64,000 nt of DNA from the sequence record MH533020.1, one strand, 5' to 3'. This DNA is from Acinetobacter phage ABPH49. Every line of letters begins with the position of its first letter. Positions within the stretch are counted from its first letter, which is position 1. Below, piece after piece: positions 6,224-62,407 of the stretch. The notes beneath the pieces were generated by a model. It was not told the DNA's origin. It saw only the letters and a list, made by a program, of their open reading frames with translations, and searched no databases. The position numbers and the translations under genes were made by a program.

Positions 6224-6442
6224 ATGAAAGGTTTTTGCTTAGGTGTTAGCGTAATGGCGCTGCTTGTAAACATCGTACTGTATTTCTCTATGCCTTCCGC
6301 ACACGCATCGCAGACCATGAGCCTTGTCGATGAATACCGGGACGGCAATCAAAAAGTCTGTGTGTACAGCGACGGACGCAACAGCGCCGAAGTCAGAAAG
6401 AGCCTTGCAGGGGCTTGTCCTTCAAAACATATTCGGGGGTAA
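6224..6442 (+). CDS. small secreted/membrane protein (signal-peptide-like N-terminus)
   Basis: RBS GGGGAGATAAAA; hydrophobic N-terminus MKGFCLGVSVMALLVNIVLYFSMPSAHA. Confidence 0.45.
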   Translation: MKGFCLGVSVMALLVNIVLYFSMPSAHASQTMSLVDEYRDGNQKVCVYSDGRNSAEVRKSLAGACPSKHIRG

Positions 6443-6444
6443 AA

Positions 6445-6762
6445 ATGGGTAACGTACTCCACATCCATGCAACTGATCGCGCTCTGGCTACTGGGCTGTT
6501 TGCACCGCAGGACTCTCCATCTGAGAACTGTGAGTACAACATGTACCTGCCGTCAGAATCATGCGACATGAAGATCTGGCTAACCCAGATCGACACAATC
6601 TTCCAGAGGGTATACTGGATCGGCTTCGACTATGTGACCATCCATAGCGGGGATTATTCAAGCTTGGCAATCACTGGGATGAAAATCAACCTTGGAAATC
6701 TTCTTTTCCGAGAAGGTTCCCGGGTGAATGTCCCTAGTGACCTGCTGAGGAAATTCCTGTGA
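6445..6762 (+). CDS. hypothetical protein
   Basis: RBS GGGGGTAAAA then ATG; part of track ORF 6415..6762. Confidence 0.5.
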   Translation: MGNVLHIHATDRALATGLFAPQDSPSENCEYNMYLPSESCDMKIWLTQIDTIFQRVYWIGFDYVTIHSGDYSSLAITGMKINLGNLLFREGSRVNVPSDLLRKFL

Positions 6763-7196
6763 AGATAACAGACAAGCACGTATTGTTCTTTTCATACAAG
6801 GATATGTTCAGCAACCACTTCCGGTCTGAACGCCCATTCTTCTCTCCACGTCATGAGCGTGACGGGGTTAAGTTCTATACCGGCGAGCACTTCATGATGT
6901 ATGAGAAGGCAAAGCTGTTCGGTGATGAAGAGATCTCAAAGAAGATCCTTGAAACATTCCACCCTCAGGAGGCAAAGAAGCTCGGACGGCTGGTGAAGGG
7001 GTTCAACAACGATGTGTGGGAGTATCACCGTGAGGACATAATCTTCTCGATCGTGTATTGCCGGTTGGTATACGACCAACACCTACGCCTGTCGGCGCTC
7101 AATCACCGCATGGATGGCCGATCATTCGTTGAGGCGTCCCCTTGGGACAAGATCTACGGCATCGGTCTGAAGGAGACTGACCCTGCGTGCGGCTGA
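6759..7196 (+). CDS. NADAR (YbiA-like, DUF1768) domain protein, truncated by an apparent frameshift
   Basis: YbiA/NADAR-like motifs (GEHFMMYEKAKLFGD, IYGIGL). The conserved C-terminus DDPSQWKGLNLLGKAWDNATDAL continues in the +1 frame to about 7319. Confidence 0.7.
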   Translation: MKITDKHVLFFSYKDMFSNHFRSERPFFSPRHERDGVKFYTGEHFMMYEKAKLFGDEEISKKILETFHPQEAKKLGRLVKGFNNDVWEYHREDIIFSIVYCRLVYDQHLRLSALNHRMDGRSFVEASPWDKIYGIGLKETDPACG

Positions 7197-7310
7197 CGAT
7201 CCATCCCAATGGAAAGGATTAAACCTCCTCGGCAAGGCGTGGGACAACGCCACAGACGCTCTGGCGGAAAAGTGCGGAGGGTACGAGCTTATGAGTAAGG
7301 AGAGAGCAAC

Positions 7311-7415
7311 ATGGGGCATATAATGCTACTGATGGTTTACGCTGGATGGTTCTCATCGGTGGCGTGGCTAAGTTTTACTGGGAAACTGCATTTTACCTTG
7401 ACAGTTTCCCGTTAG
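7311..7415 (+). CDS. very small hydrophobic protein (34 aa)
   Basis: AAGGAGAGAGCAAC ATG; hydrophobic sequence; below the track cutoff. Confidence 0.3.
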   Translation: MGHIMLLMVYAGWFSSVAWLSFTGKLHFTLTVSR

Positions 7416-7426
7416 CGGTGTATGGT
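7398..7426 (+). promoter_or_regulatory. sigma70-like promoter (TTGACA-17-TATGGT)
   Basis: hexamers upstream of the HNH gene RBS. Confidence 0.45.
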
Positions 7427-7487
7427 ATCATGTTCTTCTTCCTGACACATCTGGTTGCTTTCTACGAAGTGAAAAGGAGGGGTTACA

Positions 7488-8000
7488 TTGTCAGATAAGA
7501 TAAAGCACAAGATCTGTCTTATCCCAAGGACATCGTGGGACCAAAACCTGCGAAGCCACCTGACGAAGACAGGTTGGGACAAGGTAAGGCGAAAGTGCTA
7601 CGCAGAACATGGCTATCATTGTCAGATCTGCGGGAACCAAGGTGGTAACGGTAAAAAACACCCCGTTGAGTGTCATGAAGACTGGACATTCGAAGACGGA
7701 GAGGTTAAGCTGGTAGGCCTTATGTGCCTGTGCCCTCCGTGTCATGAATTCCATCACCCGGGGCTGGCCGAGATGAACGGTAATGTCGAGCGTATGCTCC
7801 GGCAGTTCATGAAGGTGAATAACATCACTCGCGATCAGGCGATCGCATACATGAAGAGTGAGTTCAATATCTGGCGGGAGCGCAGCAAACAAAGCTGGAC
7901 CCTCAATATTGACTACCTCGACGAGTACATGGGTGGTGAGCAGGTTGGTAAGAAAAAGAAACCGGTGCTGAAGGACTACGGCCCGGGCGAGGCATTCTGA
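7488..8000 (+). CDS. HNH endonuclease
   Basis: 170 aa; Cys/His-rich HNH zinc motifs (CYAEHGYHCQICG...HH); TTG start after RBS AAAAGGAGGGG. Confidence 0.65.
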   Translation: MSDKIKHKICLIPRTSWDQNLRSHLTKTGWDKVRRKCYAEHGYHCQICGNQGGNGKKHPVECHEDWTFEDGEVKLVGLMCLCPPCHEFHHPGLAEMNGNVERMLRQFMKVNNITRDQAIAYMKSEFNIWRERSKQSWTLNIDYLDEYMGGEQVGKKKKPVLKDYGPGEAF

Positions 8001-8031: not shown

Positions 8032-9153
8032 ATGGGGTACCCATACGTTAAGGACCTCGCGGAGATCATGTCTCCAGATTGTGAGATTATTCTCGATCTG
8101 GATCAGACGTGCTTCGTGGCGGCGGCAGGAGCCGAGAAGAGAACGATCAAGGCGATTCACACCAAATCAGGGAAGTTCGAGATCTTCAAGAACAGGACCG
8201 AGTTCTGGGGATCCGGTAAGAAAGCGATCGGTGGTTGGCTGAAGGATTCAAACACCAACCGCGAGATGGCGGCAATGAAGGCTGGAAAGACCTTCAGGCC
8301 ACTTGGTCGGGAAGACTTCACAATCGAGGATATTCAGACGCCGGAGCCGGTTGAGAACTGTCTACACCTGCTGAAGGTGAAGATCAACGCAATCCTCGAG
8401 CACATGCAGTGCGAAAACGGTGTGGGTGTTCTGGGCGGGGAAGGAAACTTCCGCCTTGTTCTTCCAACGCCGGAGATTTACAAGGGCAACCGCGAAGACA
8501 CTCTACGACCGCTTCTGTTGGCGGATACCCGCGAGTACGTCAAGAAGAAATACGGCGCGGTTGTGATCGACGGGATCGAGGCTGATGACTACCTGACCAT
8601 GAAACAGTGGGAGGGGTGGCAGCACTACCAGCGGACTGGCAAGTTCAACAAGATCGTTGCCTCGTTCGACAAGGATCAGGTGCAGTGCCCGGGGCTTATC
8701 TTCAACACGATGCGTGAAACGGATAAAGGCCGCGAGTCTGGGTGGAAACACCCGCAGCCAATGCTTATCGACGATTCGATGGGTGAAGTGTGGATGGAGA
8801 AGGGTAAGGTTAAGGGCTGGGGTAAGAAATTCTTCGGCTACCAGATGCTGTTTGGCGACACGTCGGACAACGTCAAACCCTACCAGAACTTCGACATCAA
8901 GTTTGGGGAAGGTGCCGCCTTCAAGGTGATCTCCCCTTGCGACACGGAAGCCGACATGTGGGCTGCGATCGTAGACACTTACAAGGGCTGGTTCCCTGAT
9001 GGTGTTGAGTTTGTGGACCACTCTGGAGTTGAGCGTAAGTTTACTGCCGGGCAGTGGGCGAGCGTAATCTTCCAGCTGGTGTACATGAAAAGGTGGGAAG
9101 GTGACGAAACTTCCTTGACCACAAAACTGAGGGAGGTTGGGCTGATCAAATGA
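8032..9153 (+). CDS. 5'-3' exonuclease / flap endonuclease (T4 RNase H / FEN family)
   Basis: GIEADDYL and LFGDTSDN motifs typical of 5' nucleases; RBS AGAGGGGG. Confidence 0.75.
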   Translation: MGYPYVKDLAEIMSPDCEIILDLDQTCFVAAAGAEKRTIKAIHTKSGKFEIFKNRTEFWGSGKKAIGGWLKDSNTNREMAAMKAGKTFRPLGREDFTIEDIQTPEPVENCLHLLKVKINAILEHMQCENGVGVLGGEGNFRLVLPTPEIYKGNREDTLRPLLLADTREYVKKKYGAVVIDGIEADDYLTMKQWEGWQHYQRTGKFNKIVASFDKDQVQCPGLIFNTMRETDKGRESGWKHPQPMLIDDSMGEVWMEKGKVKGWGKKFFGYQMLFGDTSDNVKPYQNFDIKFGEGAAFKVISPCDTEADMWAAIVDTYKGWFPDGVEFVDHSGVERKFTAGQWASVIFQLVYMKRWEGDETSLTTKLREVGLIK

Positions 9154-9482: not shown

Positions 9483-10044
9483 CCAGAGTATGGCGTCATG
9501 CGCCTACGTGGTGTTGGAAGACGAAAAGCCGATCTTCAAAGAGGTGTTGCACACAACCGGGGCTGCTGATCCAAAGGCTTGGCAGATCAGGTTCGATAAC
9601 CCGGTTGAGCAAATGGATTACATCTCCAAGAAGATCCTCGGGGTAGCCAACAGCTTCGAAGTCGAGCACGTCGTTATGGAATCGCTGAGTTTCGGATCTG
9701 CGGGTAACGCAACCCGCGATCTGGCCGGGCTGTTCTTCTGCATCCAGCTCACTCTGTTCCGAGATGGACGGTATGGGATGGATCAGCTGCATACGATCGC
9801 GCCGACATCGGCCAAATCTTGGGCATGGAACTTCTTGCCAGAAGACATGCAGTCCGTCCCTAATGAAAAGGGAACCAAGATGAACAAGCGAAAGATGGGT
9901 AAGGATGAAATGGTGATTGTTGCCAAATCTCTGTACCCGGGTTTCCTTGACGGCTACAACAAAACAGGTAAGAATGGTGGGTTGACTGACCTCGCGGATG
10001 CGATCTTGATTGGTCGTACTTGGCGGGCTAAGCGGGGGCTGTAA
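9433..10044 (+). CDS. RuvC-like Holliday junction resolvase
   Basis: ILTIDQSMASCAYVVL resembles the RuvC N-terminal catalytic motif; C-terminal DLADAILIG; start ambiguous (9433 or a downstream GTG/ATG). Confidence 0.55.
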   Translation: MSNTNWRKKRVRILTIDQSMASCAYVVLEDEKPIFKEVLHTTGAADPKAWQIRFDNPVEQMDYISKKILGVANSFEVEHVVMESLSFGSAGNATRDLAGLFFCIQLTLFRDGRYGMDQLHTIAPTSAKSWAWNFLPEDMQSVPNEKGTKMNKRKMGKDEMVIVAKSLYPGFLDGYNKTGKNGGLTDLADAILIGRTWRAKRGL

Positions 10045-10628
10045 TGGCCCGTCGCTACCGCCGTAAAACTTCGAGGTCTGCAAAGCCGAAGTTTGCCACC
10101 AAGAAAAAGGTGACCGCTCGAATCACCACACCGCTGAATAAGGATTTATGGGTTTCAGGGTCGAAATCTATAGAGAAAGAAAGGGATAGGATCCTCGCAG
10201 AACAAGGAGGGCTTTGCGCTCTCCTCGGCGAGCCGGTGATAGACCCGTGTCTTGACCATGATCATTACGACGGGAAATGCCGGGGAGTCCTAAGCAGTGT
10301 GGTCAACATGTGGGAAGGGAAAGTTCATGAGTTGTGGGGACGTCATGTGGCCGAATACACAGACACCCCGCTCAGTGAAGTCCTGAGGAGAATGGCCGAT
10401 TATCTGGAAGCTGATCGGACACAATCTAAGCTGCATGGTAAAACAGTGGCCGACCTGAAGGCTTACCTGAAAAAACTGACGAAAGAAACGATCGTCCGTC
10501 GTGGACGAGAGATCCTTGGTATTGAGATCGACCCGGAACTCGAAAAGGTTGAGCAGATCAGGATCTACGTCGTCGAATTCATTCGTCAACTCGAGGAGAA
10601 TTACGGTTATGAGAGAAGTCGGCCTTAG
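10044..10628 (+). CDS. recombination endonuclease VII-like (HNH/Endo VII family) protein
   Basis: GGLCALLGEPV...DHDHYDGKCRGVL matches the Endo VII C...DHDH..G..RG motif. Confidence 0.6.
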   Translation: MARRYRRKTSRSAKPKFATKKKVTARITTPLNKDLWVSGSKSIEKERDRILAEQGGLCALLGEPVIDPCLDHDHYDGKCRGVLSSVVNMWEGKVHELWGRHVAEYTDTPLSEVLRRMADYLEADRTQSKLHGKTVADLKAYLKKLTKETIVRRGREILGIEIDPELEKVEQIRIYVVEFIRQLEENYGYERSRP

Positions 10629-10833
10629 TGCAGGGATTGATGCACCAGTGATCCAGTTCTTCTATCGCAATTGGCGAGGGGAGTGTGGCTACCGTAAGAT
10701 CAAGGGGACTCCGCAGTTCTGGTATGGAACGAGCCAGTACCACAAGGGTGCCCAGTGGTTCATCAAGGCATACGATGCAGACAAAGATGATGTAAGAGAC
10801 TTCGCAGTCAAAGACATCATTGAATTCGTGTAA
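10609..10833 (+). CDS. hypothetical protein
   Basis: internal ATG (MREVGLSAG...) of track ORF 10501..10833 overlapping the upstream stop. Confidence 0.45.
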   Translation: MREVGLSAGIDAPVIQFFYRNWRGECGYRKIKGTPQFWYGTSQYHKGAQWFIKAYDADKDDVRDFAVKDIIEFV

Positions 10834-10853
10834 ACGAGAGGAGAATAGCAGTA

Positions 10854-11828
10854 ATGACAACCAACCAAACGGTCAAGGCAACAATCACGGATGAGCAGTT
10901 GGAAAATCTGAAGGCGTCTGGGCTTTCCAACCGAGCGATTGCCCGAGACTATCTGGGCAAAGAGAGTCGTGAGTCCTACGTGCGCCTGCGTCTTGATCGC
11001 CTGTACGGAAGCACACGAGCAAGTGTCAGTGCGCTGAACGCTGCCAAACGAAGGGCTAGTGGTCCGAAGGTTCTCGTATTGGACATCGAGACAGCACCGC
11101 TGATCGCCCACATGTGGAGCCTCTGGCAAAACGGGATCGGCCTGAACCAAATGCAAGGTGACTGGCACCTGCTGTCGTATGCTGCCAAGTGGATTGATAG
11201 CGACGAAGTGTTCTACAAGGATCAGCGTGACAAGGAAGACATCACGGATGACTCTGAGCTGTTGGAAGATCTCTGGGAGCTTCTGAACGAAGCGGACTTC
11301 GTGATTGGTCACAACATCCGCAAGTTCGACATCAAGAAGATCAAGGCCCGGATGCTGTTGAATGGCTTGCCGCCTCCGTCAACCTTCCGACAGATTGACA
11401 CCCTGATCATTGCCAAGAGCGTGTTCGCGTTCACCAGCAATAAGCTGGAGTACCTGACTGACAAACTCTGCAAGGTGTTCAAGAAGTCCAAGCACGGTAA
11501 GTTCCACGGACATTCCCTGTGGACAGAGTGTCTGAAAGGTAACCCGGAAGCATGGCTGGAGATGGAGGAATACAACAAGTACGACATCCTGTCCAACCAA
11601 GAGCTGTACGAGATTCTGGCACCGTGGGATGCCCGCCTGCCGAACTTCGACCTGTACACGGATGAGGTCCTCGACAACTCCGAATGGGTTAAAGACGGGT
11701 ACCACCTGACCAACCTCGGTAAGTACGATCGTTATCGTCACGTGGTGACCGGCCAGTACCGCCGTGGGCGGAAAAATCTGCTAACGAAGGAAAAGCGAGC
11801 TTCGTTGCTGTCAAACATCATCGCTTAA
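10854..11828 (+). CDS. DEDDh-family 3'-5' exonuclease (DnaQ/RNase T-like)
   Basis: LVLDIETAP (Exo I), HNIRKFD (Exo II), YNKYD (Exo III) motifs; RBS GAGAGGAGAA. Confidence 0.7.
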   Translation: MTTNQTVKATITDEQLENLKASGLSNRAIARDYLGKESRESYVRLRLDRLYGSTRASVSALNAAKRRASGPKVLVLDIETAPLIAHMWSLWQNGIGLNQMQGDWHLLSYAAKWIDSDEVFYKDQRDKEDITDDSELLEDLWELLNEADFVIGHNIRKFDIKKIKARMLLNGLPPPSTFRQIDTLIIAKSVFAFTSNKLEYLTDKLCKVFKKSKHGKFHGHSLWTECLKGNPEAWLEMEEYNKYDILSNQELYEILAPWDARLPNFDLYTDEVLDNSEWVKDGYHLTNLGKYDRYRHVVTGQYRRGRKNLLTKEKRASLLSNIIA

Positions 11829-11929: not shown

Positions 11930-12567
11930 ATGAAGATCATTGCTTTAAATGCCCCTGCGAACTCCGGCAAAGACGAGATCGCTAAATACCTGAGCAAAAA
12001 TACGGCACCGTGCACATGGAGATCAAAGAGCTGCTGTTCGAAGTGGCTATCCGCGCCGCCGGGGTCAGCAAAAAGCTCTGGGAAGCACTGTATGAGCGCG
12101 AGTACAAAGAGCGCCCATGCCCATACCTGATGATCAACGGACAAAACGTCAGCCCGCGTGAGTGGATGATCCATTGTTCTGAGGGACTGATGAAGCCGAT
12201 CTTCGGCAACACTGTGTTCGGCGACGCCCTCCGCAAGAAACTCGAGGCTTTGGAAGAAGAGAATGCCGGTAAAGAGTTGGTGATCGTCCTGTCCGATGGG
12301 GGCTTCGTTGCTGAGGCGATTCCAAACATGGATTTTGTCGGTGTTCACAATTACTACCTCGCCCGCGTGCAGCGCGTGGATGAAAACGGTGACCCAAGCA
12401 AATACGGCTTCGGGGCAGATAGTCGCCGGTTCTTGTACGCCAGTGACTTTGGCTTCGCTATCCGTGCCGTTGATTGGGAAAACCGACCAAATGAGCTTGA
12501 GCAGCTGGCAGAAGAGATCTATGCCGACGCAATGGCTAACAAAAAGAGCAGCTGGGAGCAACCATGA
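11930..12567 (+). CDS. deoxynucleoside monophosphate kinase (T4 gp1-like), interrupted by an apparent 1-nt frameshift near 11996-12001
   Basis: N-terminal P-loop ALNAPANSGKDEIAKYLSK in frame 2, the remaining about 185 aa in frame 1. The junction lies in an A5 run. Confidence 0.6.
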
Positions 12568-13160
12568 TTAAATGTCCTATCATTGTCGACGTGGATCAGA
12601 CCTTCGTAGATTCTGCAACACCGTGGCTTCGGTGGTGTGAGGATGTGTACGGTGTTCTGCCAGACTGGAGCCAAAGCCCTCCGAGTGGTGAGATGCACTA
12701 CAACATCGGGAGCTATTTCCCGTCGCCGAAGAAGCATCAACCTCTGCCGCTGTTGTTCTGGGAGGATCCGTTCCTCTACGACAAGCTTCGTCCTCTGCCC
12801 GGCGCACTGGTCGTACTCCGCAAACTGAAAAGTATGGGACACCCGATCCGCTTTGTCTCTTACTGCAAGAACGGCCACTTCAGTTCAAAGGCGAGATTCC
12901 TGAAGCGTGAGACAAGCGACTTCTTGGATCTCGAGACTGGGTCAACTGGGGACGGGTTCTACGCCACAAAGGTGAAAAGTGGTGTAAGCGGTGGTGTGAT
13001 CATTGACGATCGCAACGAGTTCCTGAACCAGTTTGCGGATGACGTGCTGAAGATTAAGATGTGGACCCCGTTCACACAGTCTGTTGAGCCACGTTGCAAA
13101 TACGACTTCGAGGCTCGCAGCTGGAAGCAGATCGGCGACTTCCTGCTGGCAACGCTGTAA
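12564..13160 (+). CDS. HAD-superfamily phosphatase / 5'(3')-deoxyribonucleotidase-like
   Basis: N-terminal DxDxT motif (IIVDVDQTFVD); 198 aa. Confidence 0.5.
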   Translation: MIKCPIIVDVDQTFVDSATPWLRWCEDVYGVLPDWSQSPPSGEMHYNIGSYFPSPKKHQPLPLLFWEDPFLYDKLRPLPGALVVLRKLKSMGHPIRFVSYCKNGHFSSKARFLKRETSDFLDLETGSTGDGFYATKVKSGVSGGVIIDDRNEFLNQFADDVLKIKMWTPFTQSVEPRCKYDFEARSWKQIGDFLLATL

Positions 13161-17551: not shown

Positions 17552-18648
17552 ATGTCCGTATTCAACAAAGAGAATAACAACTGGAAAACTGGTAAGTACC
17601 CCCTGTTTTTGGGAGAGCAACTGGGCCTTCTCGACACCGTAAACACACCATACAAGCGCCTGTTCGAACTGTACAAGCTGCAAAAGAGCATCGACTGGGA
17701 CGAGAACGAGATGAACCTCGAGCAGTCACGTTTGGACATGGCAACCTGCCTGCCGGGCACCCGAAACCTGATGATCAAGAACTTGGCATTCCAAGCCGAG
17801 CTTGATGGTATCGCGGCACGATGCATGGCACCGCTGCTGGCACCGTTCATCACCAACACGGAGATGTGGCTGGGAGTATCCAAGATCACCGAGGTGGAAA
17901 ACCTCCACGCGATCACTTACACCACGATCATCCGCAACGTACTGAAGAATCCAGAAGAGTTCTTCGAAGAGATCACCAAGAACGAGAAGATCTTCGATCG
18001 TTCTGACAGCGTAATGGAAGTATTTGACGAGCTGGCGATCGCCGGTGCAAAATACACGCTGGACAAAAACTCCATCCCGCGCCGCGAGCTTATGTCTCTG
18101 CTGTTGCGTGCCTACGTGGGCATTTACTGTCTGGAGCGACTCCAGTTCATGTCTTCGTTCGCTGCAACCTTCGCGATCGGCGAGCAGGGCATGATGGTCG
18201 GGATCGCCAAGCTGGTATCGAAGATGCTCAGGACGAGCAGCTGCACGCAGCGTTCGACGAGGAAGTTATTCGGATCCTGTTGGCAGACCCAGAGTGGGCG
18301 GAAGTTTACGAAGAGATTAAGCCGTTTGTGCTGCGCTTTGTAAACGCTGTAACCAAGAGCGAGCTGGACTGGAACGAATATCTGTTCTCCGAGGGTCGTC
18401 AGATCGTTGGCCTGAACCGCCAGTTGCTGGACGAATGGGTCCTGTTGAACGCGGGTGTGGTGTACAAGTTCTTGGGCGTTGAAAACCCGCACAAGATCAT
18501 CGATGTGTCCCCGATCACTTGGATGGGCGATTGGCTGGATATCTCCAAGTTCCAGTTCGCGGCACAAGAAGGTGACATCACCGACTACCCAATGAACGTC
18601 GTGAGTAATGACGTTTCCGATGATGAAGAATTCGACTTCGAGGGATAA
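17552..18648 (+). CDS. nrdB: ribonucleoside-diphosphate reductase small subunit (NrdB) with an apparent 1-nt frameshift near 18221-18226
   Basis: N-terminal 222 aa in frame 2; the conserved iron-site (Q)DEQLH segment and C-terminus (...DDEEFDFEG) in frame 1; RBS CAAGGAGAGAAA. Confidence 0.8.
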
Positions 18649-23782: not shown

Positions 23783-23810
23783 AAGGCCGCCTTCGGGCGG
23801 CTTTTTTCGT
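23783..23810 (+). terminator. rho-independent terminator (AAGGCCGCCTTCGGGCGGCTTTTTTCG)
   Basis: GC hairpin with UUCG loop plus T-run right after the methyltransferase stop. Confidence 0.7.
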
Positions 23811-23818
23811 TTATGGTG

Positions 23819-23847
23819 TTGACACCCGGTAATGATTCGAGTAATAT
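23819..23847 (+). promoter_or_regulatory. sigma70-like promoter (TTGACA-17-TAATAT)
   Basis: consensus hexamers with optimal spacing, then RBS GGAGGAAAC and ATG 23869. Confidence 0.6.
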
Positions 23848-23868: not shown

Positions 23869-24228
23869 ATGAAATATTACCTGTATGCAGTTGCCCTGTT
23901 CACCAAGAAAGACAAGAAGCCTAACGGCTCGATGGTAAAACTCGTCGAAAGTAAGGATGAAGGTCTTGAAAGTGAAGGCATCCGGTGCTACACTTTGAAA
24001 ATCGACACGGCGACATTCTCTCGTTGGAATAATGCTCTGTCCTCCTGCGATGACGGTACAGGTTGGGCAGTTATCCCACAAACAGAAGCGGAGCTGTTGG
24101 CTAAAATAACGGGGAAAGAGTTAAAACCTTTCCGAAACCCAGATTGGGAAGACAAAATAGAGGAGTATAAAGCATGGCCGGGCCAAAACGAGACTTCGAC
24201 AAGGTATTTGAGTTCGAGACAGCTGTAA
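23869..24228 (+). CDS. hypothetical protein
   Basis: ORF track 119 aa; promoter and RBS upstream. Confidence 0.5.
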   Translation: MKYYLYAVALFTKKDKKPNGSMVKLVESKDEGLESEGIRCYTLKIDTATFSRWNNALSSCDDGTGWAVIPQTEAELLAKITGKELKPFRNPDWEDKIEEYKAWPGQNETSTRYLSSRQL

Positions 24229-24386
24229 ATCCAGACTTCCTCGCGGCAGTTAGCTGTTACCCGGACGTGTGGATCTCTTATATCGGTACAGAATCTTGGG
24301 ACGATAGCATTGAAGTTATCGTGACTTCAAAAAATGAAAAGTCGGTGTCTGAGCTGGCAGAAAGATTCGGAGGTAAGAATGGCTGA
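24174..24386 (+). CDS. hypothetical protein
   Basis: ORF track 70 aa; overlaps the upstream gene by 55 nt in another frame, so uncertain. Confidence 0.35.
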   Translation: MAGPKRDFDKVFEFETAVNPDFLAAVSCYPDVWISYIGTESWDDSIEVIVTSKNEKSVSELAERFGGKNG

Positions 24387-25640
24387 TATCAAAAATATCT
24401 GGTTGGTGGCGCTGTCCGCGACATGCTGATGGGCAAGGAACCAAAAGACCGCGATTACGTGGTGGTTGGGTCTACCCATGAGGAGATGATCTCCCTTGGC
24501 TTCGGTATGCCATTTGGTGCGGCATTCCCTGTCTATCACCACCCTGAAACCAAGGAAGAGTATGCACTGGCACGTACAGAGCGCTCAACCGGTCCGGGTT
24601 ACCACGACTTCGAGACTTTGTTCTCGCCTGACGTAACTCTGGAACAGGACCTGCTTCGCCGCGACCTGACGATCAATGCGATCGCATACGACGAAGAGAC
24701 TGGTGAGTTCATCGATCCGCATGGCGGTGTTGAAGACATCAAAAATAAACAGCTGCGTCCGGTAAACCCAAAGGCATTCCTTGAGGATCCTCTGCGAATC
24801 TACCGACTGGCTCGTCTGTTTGCCCGGTACGGCGGTGAGTTCCAAATCGGTTGGCGCACCATGTGGCTGGTAACTCAGGCTGTCAAAGCCGGTGGCCTGA
24901 ACCACCTGCCAAAGGAAAGGAAATTCGCCGAGATCGAGAAGTGCTTCAAAGACGACTCTCGCAGCAACAAACCTTCCATGATGATCACCTTCTTGGCAGA
25001 TATCGGTGAACTGCCGGAGATTGCTGCTCTGGAAGGTGTCCCACAACCGGCGGAGCACCATCCTGAGGGTGACGCTTTCGTCCACACTATGTTGGTGATG
25101 GATGCCGCGTTCAATCTGGGGGCGAGCGCACAGGAGCTGTTCGCAGCCATGCTGCACGACGTGGGAAAGGCCGTGGTTTACGAAAAGTACGGCAAGCTTC
25201 ACGGTCACGAAGAGGCGGGTGTTCCGGTAGTGGAGCAAGTGTGCGACCGGTTTGGTGTACCACTCAGCTGGAGAAAGCTGGCGGTTGTGTGCACAGAGAA
25301 TCATGGCCGGGTCCACAAAATCCGCGACATGCGCCCAAAAAAGGTTCTGGCACTCCTTGAACGATTGAAAGCAGAGCAATCCTTTGATACGATGCTGTCA
25401 CTGTGTCTGGTTTGTCAGGCCGACGCATGGGGACGTGGCCCGGATCGTTATGGAAAGATGTACCTGCAAGGGGTGTACCTGATGAATGTTGCAGAAGCTC
25501 TGGCACTGGCACGGAAAGATCTGAAGATCAAAAACCGTGAAATTGCCTTGCAATGCAAAGGTAATCCGGGTAAGATTGCTGAAAGAGTTCGGGCAGAGAA
25601 ACTGTCCGTGGTAAAATCCGCGATACGGGAGATGAGTTGA
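24379..25640 (+). CDS. cca: CCA-adding tRNA nucleotidyltransferase with C-terminal HD domain; apparent 1-nt frameshift near 24390-24398
   Basis: MADIKNI in one frame, then YLVGGAVRDMLMG..DRDYVVVGST..EEYALARTER..HD domain in the next; colinear with E. coli Cca; the junction is an A5 run. Confidence 0.8.
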
Positions 25641-25996
25641 TGGAAGAGGCAAAACGTAACCAACCGGCAGAGACGTTCTTGGACTTCATGTTGTCAAACC
25701 CCCATGACTTTGTGGTCAAGAAGGAAGACATGAAATCTCACTACACCATGACTGTCCGTCACAAATGGACATCCGCCTCAGTTGTGGTCGTGTCTGGGCG
25801 TGGTGACGTATACACCATCCGCCCGGTGGAGGAGAAAGAGGGTGTTATCGGCTACAGTCATCCAGATACCGCGAAAAACATCTGGAATCAGGGAAGCCGA
25901 ATCATCGAAGACGAGAAAATCTTCGGAGAATATTCCCGTGACGTGAGGACTTCGGCGGCACTGGGGGAGTTCTATGACAAAAAAGAAGAAGGATAA
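25637..25996 (+). CDS. hypothetical protein
   Basis: ORF track 119 aa; ATGA coupling. Confidence 0.5.
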   Translation: MMEEAKRNQPAETFLDFMLSNPHDFVVKKEDMKSHYTMTVRHKWTSASVVVVSGRGDVYTIRPVEEKEGVIGYSHPDTAKNIWNQGSRIIEDEKIFGEYSRDVRTSAALGEFYDKKEEG

Positions 25997-26198
25997 GTTC
26001 CGCTTCGAAGGGCATGTCTGGTATGCAGACAAGAACTGTGGTAAACAAGTCTGCGCCGCGTGCGGGCTTGTTGCCCTTAACAATGAGGCCAGCGACTGGT
26101 GCATCCGTAAAGGTTGCAATTACAAAGATGATCCTGCTTACGAGTTGGCGATGGTCCGGCTTACAGAAGGGAAGAGCTTTATAAGGAGGAAACGATGA
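25974..26198 (+). CDS. small Cys-rich (Zn-binding) protein
   Basis: C..C...CAACG...C pattern; 74 aa. Confidence 0.45.
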   Translation: MTKKKKDKFRFEGHVWYADKNCGKQVCAACGLVALNNEASDWCIRKGCNYKDDPAYELAMVRLTEGKSFIRRKR

Positions 26199-26668
26199 AA
26201 TTAAGAGCTTATGCGCTGGTAAACCAATACATCGCCGGGATCCATGCCGGTATTCAGACTGCTCACGCGCTGATGGAATTGTCCGCGAAGTATGATCTTC
26301 GAGACTGCTTTGACGGAGATGATGCTGCAATGTTTTACGACTGGCGTCGGGAAGACAAAACGCTCATCGTCCTCAATGGTGGGTACCAGCAGCGTATCTA
26401 CGAGGCGATGGAGCTTTGGTCCAAGAGCGTATTCCCATATGCCCACTTCTGTGAAGAGCAGGATGCGTTAAACGGTGCATTGACGGCTGCGGTAATCATC
26501 CTGCCGGAGTATGTCTACGATCGAGCTAACCACATCACTTCTGAGGATGGTTCGTCGCTGTACCACATGCCGGATGGTCTCGAGACAGGAAATGACGTTG
26601 TCGAACTCAACTACATCGAGCGTCAAATCTCTGAATCTTTGGGCAAATTCCGACTGAAGGGGGAGTAA
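26195..26668 (+). CDS. PTH2-like (peptidyl-tRNA hydrolase 2 fold) protein, tentative
   Basis: LVNQYIAGIHAGIQTAHA and ...TLIVLNG....LTAAVIILPE loosely match the PTH2 pattern; weak call. Confidence 0.35.
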   Translation: MKLRAYALVNQYIAGIHAGIQTAHALMELSAKYDLRDCFDGDDAAMFYDWRREDKTLIVLNGGYQQRIYEAMELWSKSVFPYAHFCEEQDALNGALTAAVIILPEYVYDRANHITSEDGSSLYHMPDGLETGNDVVELNYIERQISESLGKFRLKGE

Positions 26669-26949
26669 TGGAAGATAAACACGGGGTGTTCATGTACGGG
26701 GACGAGAAGATCGTCGTCTACCAGCAGCCGGGTTGGTTGTACATGTATTGGCGGCACCTGCCGATCGAATACGGTACACGACTCGCACAGACAGGTCCAA
26801 GTGTTTTCGAAAAGAAATACAAAGGATCTTTTGAGAAGTGGTTCGATGCTGTCCAGAAGCGAGAGAAAGAAACAATGCTCAGCTATCAGGAACAGGCGCG
26901 TGACCTTCTTAACCAAGCGGAGTATATCCGTAAAAACAACGGATTCTGA
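26668..26949 (+). CDS. hypothetical protein
   Basis: ORF track 93 aa. Confidence 0.5.
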   Translation: MEDKHGVFMYGDEKIVVYQQPGWLYMYWRHLPIEYGTRLAQTGPSVFEKKYKGSFEKWFDAVQKREKETMLSYQEQARDLLNQAEYIRKNNGF

Positions 26950-26957
26950 GGAGAATC

Positions 26958-27437
26958 ATGAAAGTAAAAGAGCTTATCGACCTCTTGTCGAAGATGGACC
27001 CAGAGGCTACGGCGCTGTTCGCAGCTGACCGTCTCCACGCCTCCATCGGTGGAACACCGGCCCTGCCGGTTGCCACGGTGTCCGCTGGTTTTGACTGGGA
27101 CAACAACAAAGTGTTCATTGGGCCGCCGGTTGGCGCTCACTTCCTGCAAGTTTCCCGGGAAGACTTCAGAGAGGTCATCGAGTGGAAGCAGCTGCTGTCC
27201 GGTTGTCGTAGTCGTGGGGAAGTTAAGGCGATCCAAGCGAAATACATTGACAAGGAAGAGTTGCGTGGTAAACTGGCCGACATCATCAGAAAACATTTTG
27301 GTGATGACTGGTACCCGAGCTGTTCCGAGTCGATTTTCCAGTGCGACACCCCGTTGATCGAGTCCCCTTCAGTGGTTGCTGAAATCATGGAAGAGTTCGA
27401 TCTTTACAAAAGCGTAGATGAAGAAGAAGAGGAGTAA
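26958..27437 (+). CDS. hypothetical protein (acidic C-terminus)
   Basis: ORF track 159 aa; RBS GAGGAGAATC. Confidence 0.5.
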   Translation: MKVKELIDLLSKMDPEATALFAADRLHASIGGTPALPVATVSAGFDWDNNKVFIGPPVGAHFLQVSREDFREVIEWKQLLSGCRSRGEVKAIQAKYIDKEELRGKLADIIRKHFGDDWYPSCSESIFQCDTPLIESPSVVAEIMEEFDLYKSVDEEEEE

Positions 27438-27442
27438 TAAAC

Positions 27443-27841
27443 ATGGCTGCATACATTTCGGTAATCGTACTTCAGGCACTGTGCCTGTTTCTGGCACTGT
27501 TCGGCATGTTCGGCAAGGCGATCCTGAAGAAAGCCGGTAAGTGGGAATTCAAACCTGAGCCGATCTCTACAGCTCAGAAGGTTGTCCAGCTGCTTATCGC
27601 GATTGGCTACGCGGTGCTGATTTACTTTGCCACCATCGGCACCTTCGTCGGCAACCTGCCTCTGGTTCTGTTCGTTATTCAGGTGACCACCACTTCAGTT
27701 CTTTACCTGAAGCACCTGCCTAAGCGAATGACGTCTGATGACCTGTCCGGCACCATGTTCACCATCAGCGTCGCATACGCGATTGGTATTCTGGTCGCCT
27801 ACACCTACATGGGTCTGGTCTGCGCCCGAGTGGTTGGCTGA
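27443..27841 (+). CDS. integral membrane protein (about 4 TM helices)
   Basis: ORF track 132 aa; long hydrophobic stretches. Confidence 0.55.
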   Translation: MAAYISVIVLQALCLFLALFGMFGKAILKKAGKWEFKPEPISTAQKVVQLLIAIGYAVLIYFATIGTFVGNLPLVLFVIQVTTTSVLYLKHLPKRMTSDDLSGTMFTISVAYAIGILVAYTYMGLVCARVVG

Positions 27842-28053
27842 TGAAAACATGTGACAGCTGCACACACTGCATTGTCATGAAAGGGAAGCCGCACAATCTG
27901 TGCGGCCTTCACGATTATAGAGTCAAGGGGGTTCACACCTGCTTGAGCTTCAAAGGGAGAAAATATGAGCGAAGAGAACAAGGTCCCCGGAAAAGTAATC
28001 ATGAAGTGCTTGGCCGGATCGAAGGCATACGGAACATCTGTCCCGACGAGTGA
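27841..28053 (+). CDS. small Cys-rich protein (CxxC..HC)
   Basis: ORF track 70 aa; overlaps the downstream gene start by about 90 nt, so uncertain. Confidence 0.3.
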   Translation: MKTCDSCTHCIVMKGKPHNLCGLHDYRVKGVHTCLSFKGRKYERREQGPRKSNHEVLGRIEGIRNICPDE

Positions 28054-29041
28054 CACAGACATTCGTGGGATCTTTGTTGCCGAGCCAAAGTCTATCCGCA
28101 CACCGTGGTACACCGTTGGTGAATACACCATGCCAGACGAAGAAGATGGAAAACTTTATGAGCTGAACAAGTTCATGGAGCTGTTCGTCGATATGAACCC
28201 AAACATCATCGAACTTATGTTCGTCAGGGAGTCGGAGATCCTCTTCTCGACACCTGAGTATTGGGAACTCCGTCGACATGCTCACGCTCTGCTGTCGAGC
28301 AAGGTAGCCTTCAAGTTCTCCGGGTACGCGATGGCACAGCTGAAGCGCATCAAAGGCCACGACAAATGGATCAACAACCCACAGCCGGTAGAGGTCCCAA
28401 GCCAGCTGGAATTCTTCAGGATGGTGAATAACTACACTGAAGAGAGGATCTTGAAACATAAAGACTTCATGGACGTACTGATCAGGCTGGAGGGTCTTGC
28501 ATCACTGATCCCTCTGGGAAACTGGTTGTACGGTGTGGTGTTCGACTACCGAGAGTCGGTGCCTCCGATGTTCAACCCGGACGGGTCAATCAGGAAGATC
28601 GCTTATGAGGACATTCCTGACGACATCAAGAAACGCGCGCCGCTCTTCATCGTAAAATACTTGAGCGAGGACCACAAACTCGCAAAAGAAAAGCACAGGA
28701 ACTACTGGACGTGGAAGGAAAACCGCAATGCGGCCCGTCACGAACTGGAGGTTAAGTTCGGTTACGACACAAAACACGCCATGCACCTTGTGCGGCTTAT
28801 GCGTATGGCCCGTGAGATCCTCGAAACCGGAGAGGTCCATGTCTGGAGGCCTGACCACGAAGAGCTTGTTGGTATTCGAAACGGATCCCTTGATTACGAC
28901 ACCCTGATCGAGTGGGCCGAGATGACCGACGAGTATGTGCGGGGCGAGGCATACCAGAACACAAAACTTCCTAAAAAGGTTGACTTGAAGCTGGCATCTG
29001 ATATACTGCTCAAAGTTCAGGACATGGCTTGGAGGAGTTAA
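27965..29041 (+). CDS. Pol-beta superfamily nucleotidyltransferase of unknown specificity
   Basis: NTase core motif GS-x10-D-x-D (AGSKAYGTSVPTSDTDIRGIF) followed by a helical C-terminal region; RBS AAAGGGAGAAAAT; 358 aa. Confidence 0.6.
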   Translation: MSEENKVPGKVIMKCLAGSKAYGTSVPTSDTDIRGIFVAEPKSIRTPWYTVGEYTMPDEEDGKLYELNKFMELFVDMNPNIIELMFVRESEILFSTPEYWELRRHAHALLSSKVAFKFSGYAMAQLKRIKGHDKWINNPQPVEVPSQLEFFRMVNNYTEERILKHKDFMDVLIRLEGLASLIPLGNWLYGVVFDYRESVPPMFNPDGSIRKIAYEDIPDDIKKRAPLFIVKYLSEDHKLAKEKHRNYWTWKENRNAARHELEVKFGYDTKHAMHLVRLMRMAREILETGEVHVWRPDHEELVGIRNGSLDYDTLIEWAEMTDEYVRGEAYQNTKLPKKVDLKLASDILLKVQDMAWRS

Positions 29042-29043
29042 AA

Positions 29044-29304
29044 GTGTTGCAGCAGTTGCCGTTCGTTGAGATGGGTGCCGGTCTGGCACTCATCCTGTAC
29101 TTTGCGATGGTTCTTCGTGTGTTCTTGCGTCTCAAGCGGGACGTTGTTCTCAGAAGGGTTGTCGGCAAAGAATCACAGGAGGATTGGGAGGATTTATGCT
29201 GGAAGATGGCAGCGTGGTGGCCGGTAGTCCCGGTGACAAAGAAGATCCTGAGGAAGTTATCGAAGTCAAAGAGTGCCGTGGTTGCGGTAAATTTGGCGAA
29301 GTGA
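29044..29304 (+). CDS. small membrane protein
   Basis: GTG start; hydrophobic LPFVEMGAGLALILYFAMVLRVFL. Confidence 0.4.
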   Translation: MLQQLPFVEMGAGLALILYFAMVLRVFLRLKRDVVLRRVVGKESQEDWEDLCWKMAAWWPVVPVTKKILRKLSKSKSAVVAVNLAK

Positions 29305-29366: not shown

Positions 29367-29698
29367 ATGAAACATTCGAGGTTGGTGAAAAGGTAATAAT
29401 CAGTCGGGCCGGGTACAGTAAAGCTGTGTCAACCGTTGAGAGGATGACAAAAACACTGTACATTCTGAAAAACGGGATGCGCTTCTCCCGAGAAAGCAAC
29501 TCCGCGAAGAATGACAGCCATTACACCATAACCTGCCTAATGAAGGCGACACCGGAAAGGCTTCGTAAGGTCTATGCCCAAAACTGGCGCAGGACTTTAC
29601 ATGCTTTTGACTTTAATGAGTTCGACGATGATGCCATCATGGCCGTCGCCAAGGTGTTCAAGGAGGAGCGTGATAGATGTCAAAAGAAAACAAACTGA
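29336..29698 (+). CDS. hypothetical protein
   Basis: ORF track 120 aa; start uncertain. Confidence 0.45.
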   Translation: MWRKSKLLSVNETFEVGEKVIISRAGYSKAVSTVERMTKTLYILKNGMRFSRESNSAKNDSHYTITCLMKATPERLRKVYAQNWRRTLHAFDFNEFDDDAIMAVAKVFKEERDRCQKKTN

Positions 29699-32267: not shown

Positions 32268-32537
32268 CTATTTCAGTTTCTTGAGGTTCTTCTCTTGAAC
32301 CCGCAGTGTTACCCAGCCACGGGACGTGCCAGTTTGGACCCTGACGGAGAACATTCTCTCCGTTGGATTCAACGGATGGGCATACGTCTCATACATCACG
32401 TAGCCGCGTTTACCGGCGTACTTGCCGGTTGTTGGAGTTACATCATCGTCTGACTTTATCGTGGCAGGAACGGGGGTTTCCCCGTACTTCACCCTCGCTG
32501 CCCCTCTGGCCGCATACCATTCTGAAAGGTCACTCAT
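32268..32537 (-). CDS. hypothetical protein
   Basis: ORF track 89 aa. Confidence 0.5.
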   Translation of the reverse strand: MSDLSEWYAARGAARVKYGETPVPATIKSDDDVTPTTGKYAGKRGYVMYETYAHPLNPTERMFSVRVQTGTSRGWVTLRVQEKNLKKLK

Positions 32538-32749
32538 TTCGCCTCCAGCAATGCCAGCCCTTTGCGGTGAATCAGGTCGCGAGCAGTGTACGGCTTACCT
32601 GTACCTTCCCACCCAAGTACGAGATGAGGATTAGCGCAGGTGAAGCAGAACTTATCATACTTCCCGCCGGAGTAGTCACGGCGACAACGAAGGCAGTGAC
32701 CTAAGTACCGGTCATCGTGCGGGTGATCCGCATTGCTGAATACTTTCAT
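32534..32749 (-). CDS. small Cys/His-rich protein
   Basis: internal ATG (MKVFSNADHPHDD...CLRC...CFTC) of track ORF 32534..32848. Confidence 0.45.
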   Translation of the reverse strand: MKVFSNADHPHDDRYLGHCLRCRRDYSGGKYDKFCFTCANPHLVLGWEGTGKPYTARDLIHRKGLALLEAK

Positions 32750-32883
32750 TATTTGAACTCCAAGTACCGAGGCTCTACGTTGCCAACCTCGATGTTGTTG
32801 ACGAGGATGTCGTAGTTCCCATTGTCCCGCTTCCTCAATATTTCGCATTCAAAGCGATAGTGTTTTGGAAGGTATACACTCAT
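32749..32883 (-). CDS. hypothetical small protein (44 aa)
   Basis: perfect RBS AAAGGAGG; TAATG coupling to the downstream gene; overlaps the 3' end of the 32849..33163 gene. Confidence 0.35.
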   Translation of the reverse strand: MSVYLPKHYRFECEILRKRDNGNYDILVNNIEVGNVEPRYLEFK

Positions 32884-33163
32884 GTTTTTCCTCCTTTAGT
32901 TTCTTCCTCCGGGCAATAGCCCTCGCGGCCTGAATGTCCTGATCGGACGGTGGAGGGCCATCATACCCTCCATGCGCCCAGTATGCAAGAGTCCGACCGC
33001 AAGATTTGCACTGGTGGGAATACTCACAGACTGTGTAGTCAAGCCGGTCGTGGACGACCGTCTCAACCTCTTCACTGGAGCAGACGAAACACTTCTTGGC
33101 CCCGCCATCCTCGTCCCAGAATTCACTGCGGAGCTTGTATGTTTCAGGCCGCACCGGCTTCAT
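32849..33163 (-). CDS. Cys-rich (Zn-binding) protein
   Basis: ORF track 104 aa; CFVC...C..C..C pattern. Confidence 0.5.
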   Translation of the reverse strand: MKPVRPETYKLRSEFWDEDGGAKKCFVCSSEEVETVVHDRLDYTVCEYSHQCKSCGRTLAYWAHGGYDGPPPSDQDIQAARAIARRKKLKEEKHECIPSKTLSL

Positions 33164-33862: not shown

Positions 33863-34277
33863 TATAAATCCTCCAGTATTTCCCAAACCTCGGAACGGAA
33901 TTCCGGGTCGCAGTTCAACAGCATTTTTATCGTCGTGTAAAGCTCACCAGATGAGTCAGGGAACGGCATCAAGTGGTACCGGCGAGCATTGATCTCCGCG
34001 ATGTAAATTTCACGTTCTTCCTCAACAGCAGACGGACTCTCCGTCATCACGTACCCTGTCCCGCTGAACATGGTGCCCTTCGGTGCAGGGATGCCACGGG
34101 AGATTCGACGATAGAACGCCTTGATTTCCGCCACCGGGTACCCGAAGTAAACTCCGAGGCCACCCAGCGCAAAGCTTTGGCGTGGAGGTGTTTGAACTCC
34201 GGCAGAGGGATGTCGAATTCGTCACCGTCGTTAACCCGCTCGTTAAATTGCGGAAAATTTGGTCTTGTTTTGGTCAT
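33862..34277 (-). CDS. hypothetical protein, possibly one gene split by a frameshift near 34135-34150
   Basis: track ORFs 34047..34277 (good RBS) and 33862..34134 (no ATG or RBS of its own) overlap head-to-tail in different frames. Confidence 0.3.
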
Positions 34278-62116: not shown

Positions 62117-62407
62117 TCATGTCCGATTCATCATAGAAGAATCCTTGGTGGCACCCATTTCCCCGGCAAACATGGGCTTTAGCTTTTTTCGTTGCCGGAT
62201 GATCCAGAATCCACTGTGACCACCTTTCCCAACCTCCTCGAGGTAACCTTTGGAGATCAGGCCTTCCGCCACCTTTCCGATTTTAACAGGTAACAGGCAG
62301 TCCCCGTCCCAATACTGGGTTTTTCGACGAGGACTGGCCTCTATCTCCCAGCCAAATACAACAGCAGCTTGGAGGAAACTTGCCTCGCGTTTGTTAATCT
62401 TGCTCAT
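62117..62407 (-). CDS. hypothetical protein
   Basis: internal ATG (MSKINKREASF...) overlapping the stop of the upstream HD gene; within track ORF 62117..62464. Confidence 0.4.
   Translation of the reverse strand: MSKINKREASFLQAAVVFGWEIEASPRRKTQYWDGDCLLPVKIGKVAEGLISKGYLEEVGKGGHSGFWIIRQRKKLKPMFAGEMGATKDSSMMNRT

Follow-up and report, generated by a model that had tools for sequence, protein, structure and literature searches.

A recurrent gene cluster for a CCA-adding enzyme, a PTH2-like protein and an RlaP-family nucleotidyltransferase in Acinetobacter phage ABPH49, with a probable role in tRNA-end repair

Introduction

Phages are known to answer host defences that disable tRNA with spare tRNAs or, in the case of T4, with healing and sealing by Pnkp and Rnl1. 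The RlaP family, which includes T4 NrdC.11, owes its name to the occurrence of its genes in operons with RNA ligases. According to a preprint of December 2025, two RlaP proteins of Pseudomonas add one or two nucleoside monophosphates (NMP) to RNA 3'-OH ends in vitro, with a preference for mimics of cleaved tRNA and for Mn2+, no use of DNA and little specificity for the nucleotide added; the role proposed for them is to make good, ahead of ligation, the nucleotides that ribotoxins such as RloC take away (PMC12776372). RlaP, the CCA enzyme, PTH2 and PhoH have each been proposed as components of RNA repair or ribosome rescue in jumbo phages, and the distribution of RlaP is described as mirroring that of ligases, by Iyer et al. 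2021 (PMC7824862). The present analysis concerns a window of 64,000 nucleotides from Acinetobacter phage ABPH49 (record MH533020.1), the whole stretch of DNA that was analysed, in which genes for a CCA-adding enzyme, a PTH2-like protein and an RlaP-family nucleotidyltransferase (NTase) lie on the + strand between positions 24379 and 29041. We consider it probable that they form a module for the repair of tRNA ends that counters host systems targeting tRNA.

The original prediction for this region, that of a cluster of RNA-end-acting enzymes, held for all three genes, with family or fold matches far beyond chance. Bases 24000-29200 of the window shared 99.7% DNA identity with Serratia phage vB_SmaM-Kashira (ON287374.1, Vequintavirinae, 144.5 kb; hereafter Kashira), and identity across 17.2 kb of the window was 99.3%, with 112 mismatches and a few indels. 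The second-nearest relative was phage ChuuTotoro at ~78% identity. Since the genes already go by the names of tRNA nucleotidyltransferase, hydrolase and nucleotidyltransferase in relatives, the finding adds an increment to what is known and not a new kind of system.

Enzymes encoded by the cluster

The NTase gene (27965..29041, + strand) is an intact open reading frame (ORF) for 358 amino acids, exactly as predicted, and the expected GS-x10-DxD core was found in the segment ...CLAGSKAYGTSVPTSDTDIRG..., where G18-S19 is followed, after ten residues, by D30-x-D32. This Pol-beta-superfamily protein matched the RlaP model PF10127 over residues 5-129 with 62.6 bits (cut-off 23; E 6e-17) and phrog_388 over its full length (E 1.5e-78); PF10127 was carried by all 120 homologues listed. 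G18, S19, D30 and D32 were invariant in both alignments made, of 39 and 41 sequences, so that a lack of catalytic Asp conservation, which had been named as a possible objection, was not found. In the 39 closer homologues there was likewise no variation at E60, D61 and E66, the last of which aligns with the Asp in the 'VDL' segment of MNT that we take to be the third catalytic carboxylate of that protein. The AlphaFold2 model, with a predicted local distance difference test score (pLDDT) of 90.8, comprises an N-terminal NTase domain, a beta-rich insert at residues ~150-232 and C-terminal helices at 234-357, and homologues from T4-like phages showed ~23% identity across 96% of the length. Judged by its sequence, the NTase is a member of the RlaP family with an intact GS-x10-DxD core. 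Of the identities suggested earlier, a second RNA-repair enzyme is the one that agrees with this assignment to a family for which addition of NMP to RNA 3' ends has been observed in vitro (PMC12776372).

No solved RlaP structure was found in the PDB by sequence, profile or Foldseek searches. The nearest PDB folds to the NTase model were ANT(4')/KNTase, HalB (the Hailong oligo-dA synthase), the antitoxin MNT and 3C18, all of them weak matches limited to the NTase domain. Two other identities that had been suggested for the protein were rejected. CdnE, a CD-NTase, was matched by Foldseek at E 0.48-0.98 with a probability of 0.04-0.06 and there was no CD-NTase-type Pfam or PHROG match; with MNT the minimal N-terminal fold alone is shared (profile E 0.15; Foldseek E 0.025), and the NTase has 358 amino acids as against ~120-150 in MNT. 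Among the neighbouring proteins that were annotated or scanned, none was annotated as, or matched, a HEPN partner.

The gene for the CCA-adding/repair enzyme (24379..25640, + strand) had been described as full-length with an HD domain. The family and the HD domain were upheld, although the gene is frameshifted and not one intact ORF. The span of 1262 nt is not divisible by 3; the frame of the ATG at 24379 ends after 16 codons (MADIKNIWLVALSATC and a stop), and the long ORF at 24423-25640 (405 amino acids) lies in a different frame. The essential N-terminal motif YLVGGAVRD is coded in the frame of the long ORF, immediately 3' of a stop codon and before the first ATG; YLVGGAVRDMLMGKEPKDRDY, the GGxVRD...DxD motif region, is encoded in the window, yet the ATG at 24379 lies in the other frame, and in Kashira the gene is intact. 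Positions 24391-24395 of the window are A5 where Kashira has A6, and with A6 the Kashira protein begins MADIKKYLVGGAVRD and is 420 amino acids long. Its overlap with the stop codon (24384-24386) of the upstream ORF, as is usual for coupled genes, supports 24379 as the true start.

Two other genes of the window are broken likewise. A 1-base deletion relative to Kashira at 18225 (TT to T) splits nrdB (17552-18645) into two frames, and another at 34157 (AA to A) splits a homologue (33865-34277, - strand) of the Kashira hypothetical gene KASHIRA_01800. There are therefore three frame-breaking single-base losses within 17 kb, all in short homopolymers, and the frameshift in the CCA gene is probably a sequencing error in the window and not biology. 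A programmed frameshift or an alternative start was considered and rejected, as the sequence C-AAA-AAT is ill suited to -1 slippage, the run is A6 in Kashira and there are two other single-base deletions. The gene is most likely intact in the real phage and was treated as such.

The head domain of the CCA enzyme matched PolyA_pol (PF01743) at 53.4 bits against a cut-off of 23 (E 4.1e-14), the HD domain matched PF01966 at 30.9 bits against a cut-off of 22 (E 3.5e-7) and the ORF as a whole matched phrog_2244, tRNA nucleotidyltransferase (E 3e-111). Residues 5-416 of the 420-residue Kashira protein aligned with positions 2-404 of the 409 in the NCBIfam model PRK10885, 'multifunctional CCA addition/repair protein' (E 1e-113), with a score of 379.9 bits that lies below the equivalog cut-off of 451 despite the full-length alignment; the PcnB and A-adding NCBIfam models scored far lower. 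The motifs GGAVRD, DRD, RRD, EDPLR and HD...GK were recognised by eye, with HHPEGD and LHDVGK in the HD part. The predicted product is a multifunctional enzyme of the E. coli type with head and HD domains, and by these scores a relative of E. coli Cca, not a certified equivalog. The HD domain of E. coli Cca reportedly has 2',3'-cyclic phosphodiesterase, 2'-nucleotidase and phosphatase activities.

Both this enzyme and the NTase are misannotated in the records of relatives. Kashira labels them 'DNA methylase' (6380-7642 of our contig L001) and 'DNA polymerase' (9967-11043), and ChuuTotoro 'Poly A polymerase' and 'DNA polymerase', respectively.

The third gene (26195..26668, + strand) encodes a protein of 157 amino acids that matched phrog_3668 (E 9e-36; PHROG label 'hydrolase'). 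Its ORF was as predicted, and the tentative likeness to PTH2 was borne out in fold and by a weak profile-profile match, although not by the PTH2 Pfam model PF01981, for which there was no match at E<=0.1, nor by searches of the PDB with the protein itself (phmmer) or with a profile of 35 family members, which found nothing. No NCBIfam model matched either. An AlphaFold2 model built on the family alignment had a mean pLDDT of 92.1 and a predicted template modelling (TM) score of 0.87. When this model was compared with the PDB using Foldseek, the top 13 chains were all PTH2, with a probability of 1.0 and target-normalised TM scores of 0.62-0.71, and scores dropped thereafter. These chains come from M. 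jannaschii, S. solfataricus, A. fulgidus, P. horikoshii, T. acidophilum and human Bit1. The root-mean-square deviation was 2.4-2.9 A for the majority of the top-scoring chains, at a sequence identity of 9-16%. Alignment of the family with five PDB PTH2 sequences by hhalign gave E 1e-4 and a probability of 56% over 75 columns. On the strength of the model, the protein is assigned the PTH2 fold.

The hhalign alignment paired identical residues at Gln21/Gln22, His24/His25, Trp50/Trp49, Gly94/Gly95 and Thr97/Thr98 (157-residue protein/Pth2), and Q21, H24, E87, N93 and T97 are among the residues invariant in the family. Lys18, Asp86 and Thr90 (S. solfataricus numbering) were invariant in the five PDB sequences aligned and are reportedly catalytic in S. 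solfataricus Pth2. The invariant Glu87 aligned with Asp86; the near-invariant His17 fell at Lys18 when the alignment was extended by three columns, and Thr90 aligned with Gln89, which is not conserved. The model also has a C-terminal beta/alpha extension of 45-50 residues relative to PTH2.

The phrog_3668-type family is large, with 2,433 cluster representatives (50% identity) at E<=1e-3, and nearly all members listed are single-domain proteins of ~125-245 amino acids. Canonical PTH2 was found in 57 phage records, with no Vequintavirinae among the records listed or the genera tallied. In RaK2 and KP13-7 a canonical PTH2 is accompanied, at a different locus, by a protein of the 157-residue family. 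The family is distinct from canonical phage PTH2, with which it coexists in such RaK2-like jumbo phages of Klebsiella, and its active site is modified. In RaK2 (L171 4001-4438; NC_019526 164268-164636) the PTH2-like gene adjoins a Ser/Thr-phosphatase-like gene and lies ~2 kb from a DNA ligase gene. We found no description in the searchable literature of phrog_3668 as a PTH2-fold family distinct from the canonical one and with His in place of the catalytic Lys.

Recurrence of the cluster

Linkage was surveyed at 80 IMG/VR loci per starting gene, with partners sought within 7 kb at tblastn sensitivity; the loci surveyed from RlaP (L091-L170) are the 80 closest IMG/VR relatives of the window gene. 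In Rheinheimera phage Barba19A (84.6 kb), in Vibrio phage 495E54-1 (139 kb) and in the uncultured IMG/VR contigs L048, L156 and L166, genes for the CCA enzyme, the PTH2-like protein and RlaP form one contiguous run of ORFs that abut or overlap. Adjacency was also observed in permuted orders: PTH2-like, CCA, RlaP in L031 and L126, which are one contig; CCA with RlaP immediately after it in L103; and RlaP followed by CCA in L137. The three genes recur together in several phage lineages outside the Vequintavirinae. Within that subfamily the order CCA, PTH2-like, RlaP is constant and the small ORFs between them vary, as in PVP-SE1, where the three genes are gp159, gp162 and gp166.

Both partners were present at 13 of the 80 PTH2-like loci, the CCA gene only at 5, RlaP only at 2 and neither at 60. 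The corresponding counts for the RlaP loci were 12 with both, 7 with the CCA gene only and 61 with neither. The PTH2-like gene had a CCA, RlaP, Thg1-like (PF04446) or tRNA gene within 7 kb at 46 of its 80 loci. Its neighbours included PhoH and tRNA genes (19 loci each), two clusters of calcineurin-type phosphoesterases (at 12 loci and 8 loci) and, at 10 loci (L022, L026, L034, L036, L039, L043, L049, L062, L065 and L075), a Thg1-like tRNA 5'-end nucleotidyltransferase (PF04446, E 2e-28) at ~4 kb or less, with a median of ~1.1 kb; PhoH was also present at 8 of these 10. In L076 (6901-14199) an array of nine tRNA genes encloses both the PTH2-like gene (6992-7405) and, at 8436-8846, a homologue of RlaP.

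Searches of the literature within reach gave no description of the three-gene cassette, or of its occurrence in a phage that lacks tRNA genes and in which no ligase is detected; the paper in which RlaP was named lies outside that coverage, and prior mention there is possible.

tRNA genes and RNA ligases

No tRNA genes or Rfam RNAs were found within the window. Kashira has 20 predicted tRNA genes ~7-11 kb upstream of the position that corresponds to the window start, and all 19 of the bona fide ones encode a 3' NCCA. The remaining tRNA-like gene, annotated as tRNA-Phe (L004 6245-6321), was assigned a four-base anticodon (aaac) by ARAGORN and is alone among the 20 in lacking a terminal CCA; its product may be an unusual tRNA, or the gene may be that of a pseudo-tRNA. 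Barba19A has no credible tRNA gene, the single ARAGORN call falling inside an annotated peptidase coding sequence.

An Rnl2-like ligase (KIHGTNG motif, phrog_548) is encoded in Kashira ~41 kb from RlaP, outside the window, and such ligases are widespread across the Vequintavirinae. The putative operon described below contains no RNA ligase, and a Kashira-type Rnl was found within 7 kb of RlaP at none of 80 loci. In Barba19A no RNA or DNA ligase was detected by a non-exhaustive search that took in the annotation, the Pfam matches of ten proteins with weak annotation or none, and tblastn with two ligases as queries. No Pnkp was recognised among the proteins scanned. The adjacent kinase and HAD genes at 12010-13160 of the window were examined as candidates and rejected, since they resemble a dNMP kinase and an NT5C-like nucleotidase.

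PhoH is encoded in the window and an Rv2179c-like 3'-5' exoribonuclease elsewhere in Kashira. Small alarmone hydrolases can reverse the pyrophosphorylation of the tRNA 3'-CCA by toxSAS/CapRel toxins. At 62407-62886 (- strand) the window encodes an HD_4/HD protein of 159 amino acids that matches the RelA/SpoT hydrolase region, bears the label 'GTP pyrophosphokinase' in Kashira and looks, from its sequence, like a small alarmone hydrolase. If this is true, it would be a further gene tending the tRNA 3' end.

Proposed role in tRNA-end repair

In the proposed module the head domain of the CCA enzyme would add back missing C, C and A at tRNA 3' ends and its HD domain would clean those ends, as that of E. 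coli Cca removes 2',3'-cyclic, 2'- or 3'-phosphates. The PTH2-like protein would most likely hydrolyse an ester on the A76 ribose (peptidyl, aminoacyl or N-acyl-aminoacyl) to leave a free 3' end. Where a break leaves a 3'-OH end, RlaP would put nucleotides back before the Rnl2-like ligase, or perhaps the CCA enzyme, acts; the ligase would then seal the break or the CCA enzyme would complete the end. The original prediction had the CCA enzyme repair damage by nucleases such as PrrC or RloC; these cut anticodon loops, which is beyond the repair of a CCA enzyme and a job for RlaP and a ligase. Together the three enzymes could keep the tRNA pool usable during an attack on tRNA by host abortive-infection systems or toxins. 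The presence of the genes, their family and fold membership, the integrity of the catalytic motifs, the recurrent linkage and the CCA encoded in phage tRNA genes are established, whereas the activities, the substrates, co-transcription and the anti-defence role are inferred. A role in repair rather than in maturation is indicated because the tRNA genes of Kashira encode CCA and Barba19A has the cassette without a credible tRNA gene.

Several findings weigh against this interpretation. The linkage is lineage-restricted, as the 60 PTH2-like and 61 RlaP loci with neither partner demonstrate. More than 50 of the 80 RlaP loci lie amid genes that we take, from reading of the sequences, to be UvsX recombinase-, gp32 SSB- and helicase-like (a T4-like replication and recombination module), and no CCA enzyme was found near them. 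In the window sequence itself the reading frame of the CCA gene is broken. Neither the catalytic Lys of PTH2 nor a match to its Pfam model was found in the PTH2-like protein, and its substrate may differ; PF10127 covers the N-terminal third of the NTase only; and the promoter and terminator assignments given below are purely consensus matches. Barba19A (L089 34883-44624) moreover shares with the Vequintavirinae a wider block in which PhoH, Clp protease and DNA methylase genes precede those for the CCA enzyme, the PTH2-like protein and RlaP, for which reason the common gene order may partly be inherited synteny and not the result of selection for linkage. Barba19A also has a PRPP synthetase and a nicotinate phosphoribosyltransferase, and a nicotinamide phosphoribosyltransferase is annotated in Kashira. 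This hints that the module as a whole is of distant common descent.

The main alternative, possible though clearly less probable, is that the three enzymes are of the kinds stated and act in separate pathways, their proximity being an inherited gene order within an early or middle block. RlaP would then act on anticodon-loop breaks solely in company with the distant Rnl2-like ligase, the PTH2-like protein would be a general hydrolase for ribosome rescue and the CCA enzyme a housekeeping supplement. In favour of this, most PTH2-like and RlaP loci in IMG/VR are without partners; Barba19A and the Vequintavirinae have the larger syntenic block in common, and in the latter unrelated and variable small ORFs part the three genes. 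The presence of Rnl2-like ligases across the Vequintavirinae also fits the published co-distribution of RlaP and ligases (PMC7824862). Set against these points are the tight triplets of abutting or overlapping genes in the five phages and contigs listed above, adjacency that is kept in permuted orders, and the triplet of Barba19A, which is present without a detectable RNA or DNA ligase.

An unlikely variant, at about the same level of credence or slightly below it, is that the CCA enzyme, the PTH2-like esterase and RlaP constitute a pathway of acceptor-end repair that is independent of ligase. Here the PTH2-like enzyme, with its His, would clear A76 of a blocking acyl group, such as the N-acetyl-aminoacyl that GNAT toxins leave behind; RlaP would refill lost nucleotides upstream of CCA that are beyond the reach of the CCA enzyme, for example the discriminator base; and the CCA/HD enzyme would finally clean and rebuild the end. 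The counter-defence would be specific to attacks on the acceptor end, by NTases of the MenT/AbiEii type, pyrophosphokinases of the CapRel type, GNAT acetyltransferases and acceptor-stem nucleases.

That the cluster instead matures the tRNAs of the phage itself, through CCA addition to transcripts with the other two proteins assisting in processing, is improbable. The 20 tRNA genes of Kashira favour such a role, and it was suggested for the CCA enzyme of RaK2 by the authors who described that phage (PMC3622015), but it is largely refuted by the CCA encoded in all 19 bona fide genes. The cassette of Barba19A, with no credible tRNA gene beside it, and the naming of the best NCBIfam match as an (E. 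coli-type) 'CCA addition/repair protein' also argue against it.

The chemistry of RlaP resembles that of the MenT and AbiEii toxins. A use of the NTase in signalling or anti-defence, in the manner of CD-NTases or MNT, or as an offensive module that blocks host tRNAs by MenT-style 3' extension, is nevertheless very improbable: RlaP does add nucleotides to RNA 3'-OH ends with little nucleotide specificity (PMC12776372) and MNT and HalB are among the nearest solved folds, but the PF10127 assignment is well over its cut-off, the CdnE and MNT comparisons are as poor as reported above, no HEPN-type or effector protein occurs among the annotated or scanned neighbours and the recurrent pairing with a CCA repair enzyme favours repair.

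Gene organisation and neighbouring features

Every gene from the window start to ~32 kb is on the + strand, as are all features of this section up to 29094. A terminator-like hairpin carrying a T-run at 23783..23804 (9-bp stem with 6 GC pairs, then TTTTCGTTTAT; a consensus match only) directly follows an upstream methyltransferase-like gene and is probably the end of the preceding transcription unit. A sigma-70-like promoter candidate, TTGACA-17-TAATAT (10/12 consensus matches), lies at 23819..23847. The number of promoter-like sites in the region does not exceed shuffle expectation, and the suggestion that this one could start the operon is no stronger than that. A second hairpin at 29070..29094, 29 nt past the RlaP stop codon (11-bp stem with 6 GC pairs and a weak T tail; likewise a consensus match only), possibly marks the end of the operon. 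The three enzymes may share one transcript because a terminator and a promoter candidate precede position 23869 and a hairpin follows 29041, and 23.85-29.1 kb is probably one transcription unit holding all three.

The first gene of the putative operon is an ORF of 119 amino acids (23869..24228) with no Pfam match and 66% amino acid identity to the syntenic ORF of ChuuTotoro. It is followed by the ORF of 70 amino acids (24174..24386; 63% identity in ChuuTotoro) whose stop codon overlaps the CCA start. A second ORF of 119 amino acids (25637..25996), the start of which overlaps the CCA stop codon, matched no Pfam or PHROG family and is poorly conserved, with 25% identity in ChuuTotoro. The next gene encodes a Cys-rich, Zn-ribbon-like protein of 74 amino acids (25974..26198; phrog_7020, E 1e-27) with 57% identity to PVP-SE1 gp160 and 86% in ChuuTotoro. 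Its place beside the PTH2-like gene is conserved within the Vequintavirinae, and it is the only one of the intervening small proteins common to the window and PVP-SE1; a homologous cluster lies 5' of the PTH2-like gene at 6 IMG/VR loci.

Between the PTH2-like and RlaP genes are ORFs of 93 amino acids (26668..26949; 94% identity in ChuuTotoro, weak family matches only), 159 amino acids (26958..27437; phrog_12566, E 5e-18; 87% identity in ChuuTotoro) and 132 amino acids (27443..27841), the last a hydrophobic and, to the eye, probably a membrane protein. PVP-SE1 gp164, in the same stretch, is an annotated membrane protein, and no similarity between the two was detected. A Cys-rich ORF of 70 amino acids (27841..28053; 79% identity in ChuuTotoro) overlaps the RlaP start by 89 nt and is annotated in neither Kashira nor ChuuTotoro; it may be a genuine gene, or its conservation may be a by-product of that of RlaP. 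The small Zn-ribbon proteins said to be interspersed in the cluster are matched by this ORF and by the protein of 74 amino acids, both Cys-rich, and not by the ORFs of 119, 93, 159 and 132 amino acids.

Beyond the cluster, an in-frame deletion of 3 nt relative to Kashira was noted at 29406, and a local peak of divergence (28 mismatches/500 nt) at 32500-33000, just beyond a change in the sign of GC skew near 32 kb.

Comparison with known systems

The CCA enzyme is like E. coli Cca in being collinear with it over the full length, with a PolyA_pol head and an HD domain; it differs in being phage-encoded, in its score of 380 bits against a cut-off of 451 and, in the window, in having its first 15 codons out of frame. 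The PTH2-like protein has a fold in common with PTH2 (PF01981; 1XTY of S. solfataricus and 1Q7S, human PTRH2/Bit1), from which it is set apart by Glu87 for Asp86, His17 for Lys18 and the C-terminal extension. This PTH2-fold family is large (~2,400 clusters at 50% identity), and its altered active site points to a substrate that is not ordinary peptidyl-tRNA.

The NTase resembles PfRlaP, PaRlaP and T4 NrdC.11 in its Pfam match, in the GS...DxD motif and third carboxylate and, as modelled, in the succession of an NTase and a C-terminal helical domain. It differs in its length of 358 amino acids, with a beta-rich insert of ~80-90 residues outside the Pfam model, and in having no adjacent RNA ligase or RtcB gene, recurring instead beside CCA and PTH2-like genes. 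The cassette would give RlaP a concrete partner.

As a whole, the locus is comparable to T4 Pnkp/Rnl1 and to the jumbo-phage repertoires of PMC7824862, in that a phage encodes a set of enzymes proposed to restore tRNAs attacked by the host. It differs from those repertoires in that the phage, at ~145 kb, is not a jumbo phage, the ligase is distant and no Pnkp was recognised in the proteins scanned; the section of that article considered here makes no mention of a recurrent three-gene cassette such as the one described here. Next to the spare tRNAs and the healing and sealing of T4, a recurrent cassette of this kind would point to a second route of repair, centred on the acceptor end, and present even in a phage that has no tRNA genes and in which no ligase was detected.

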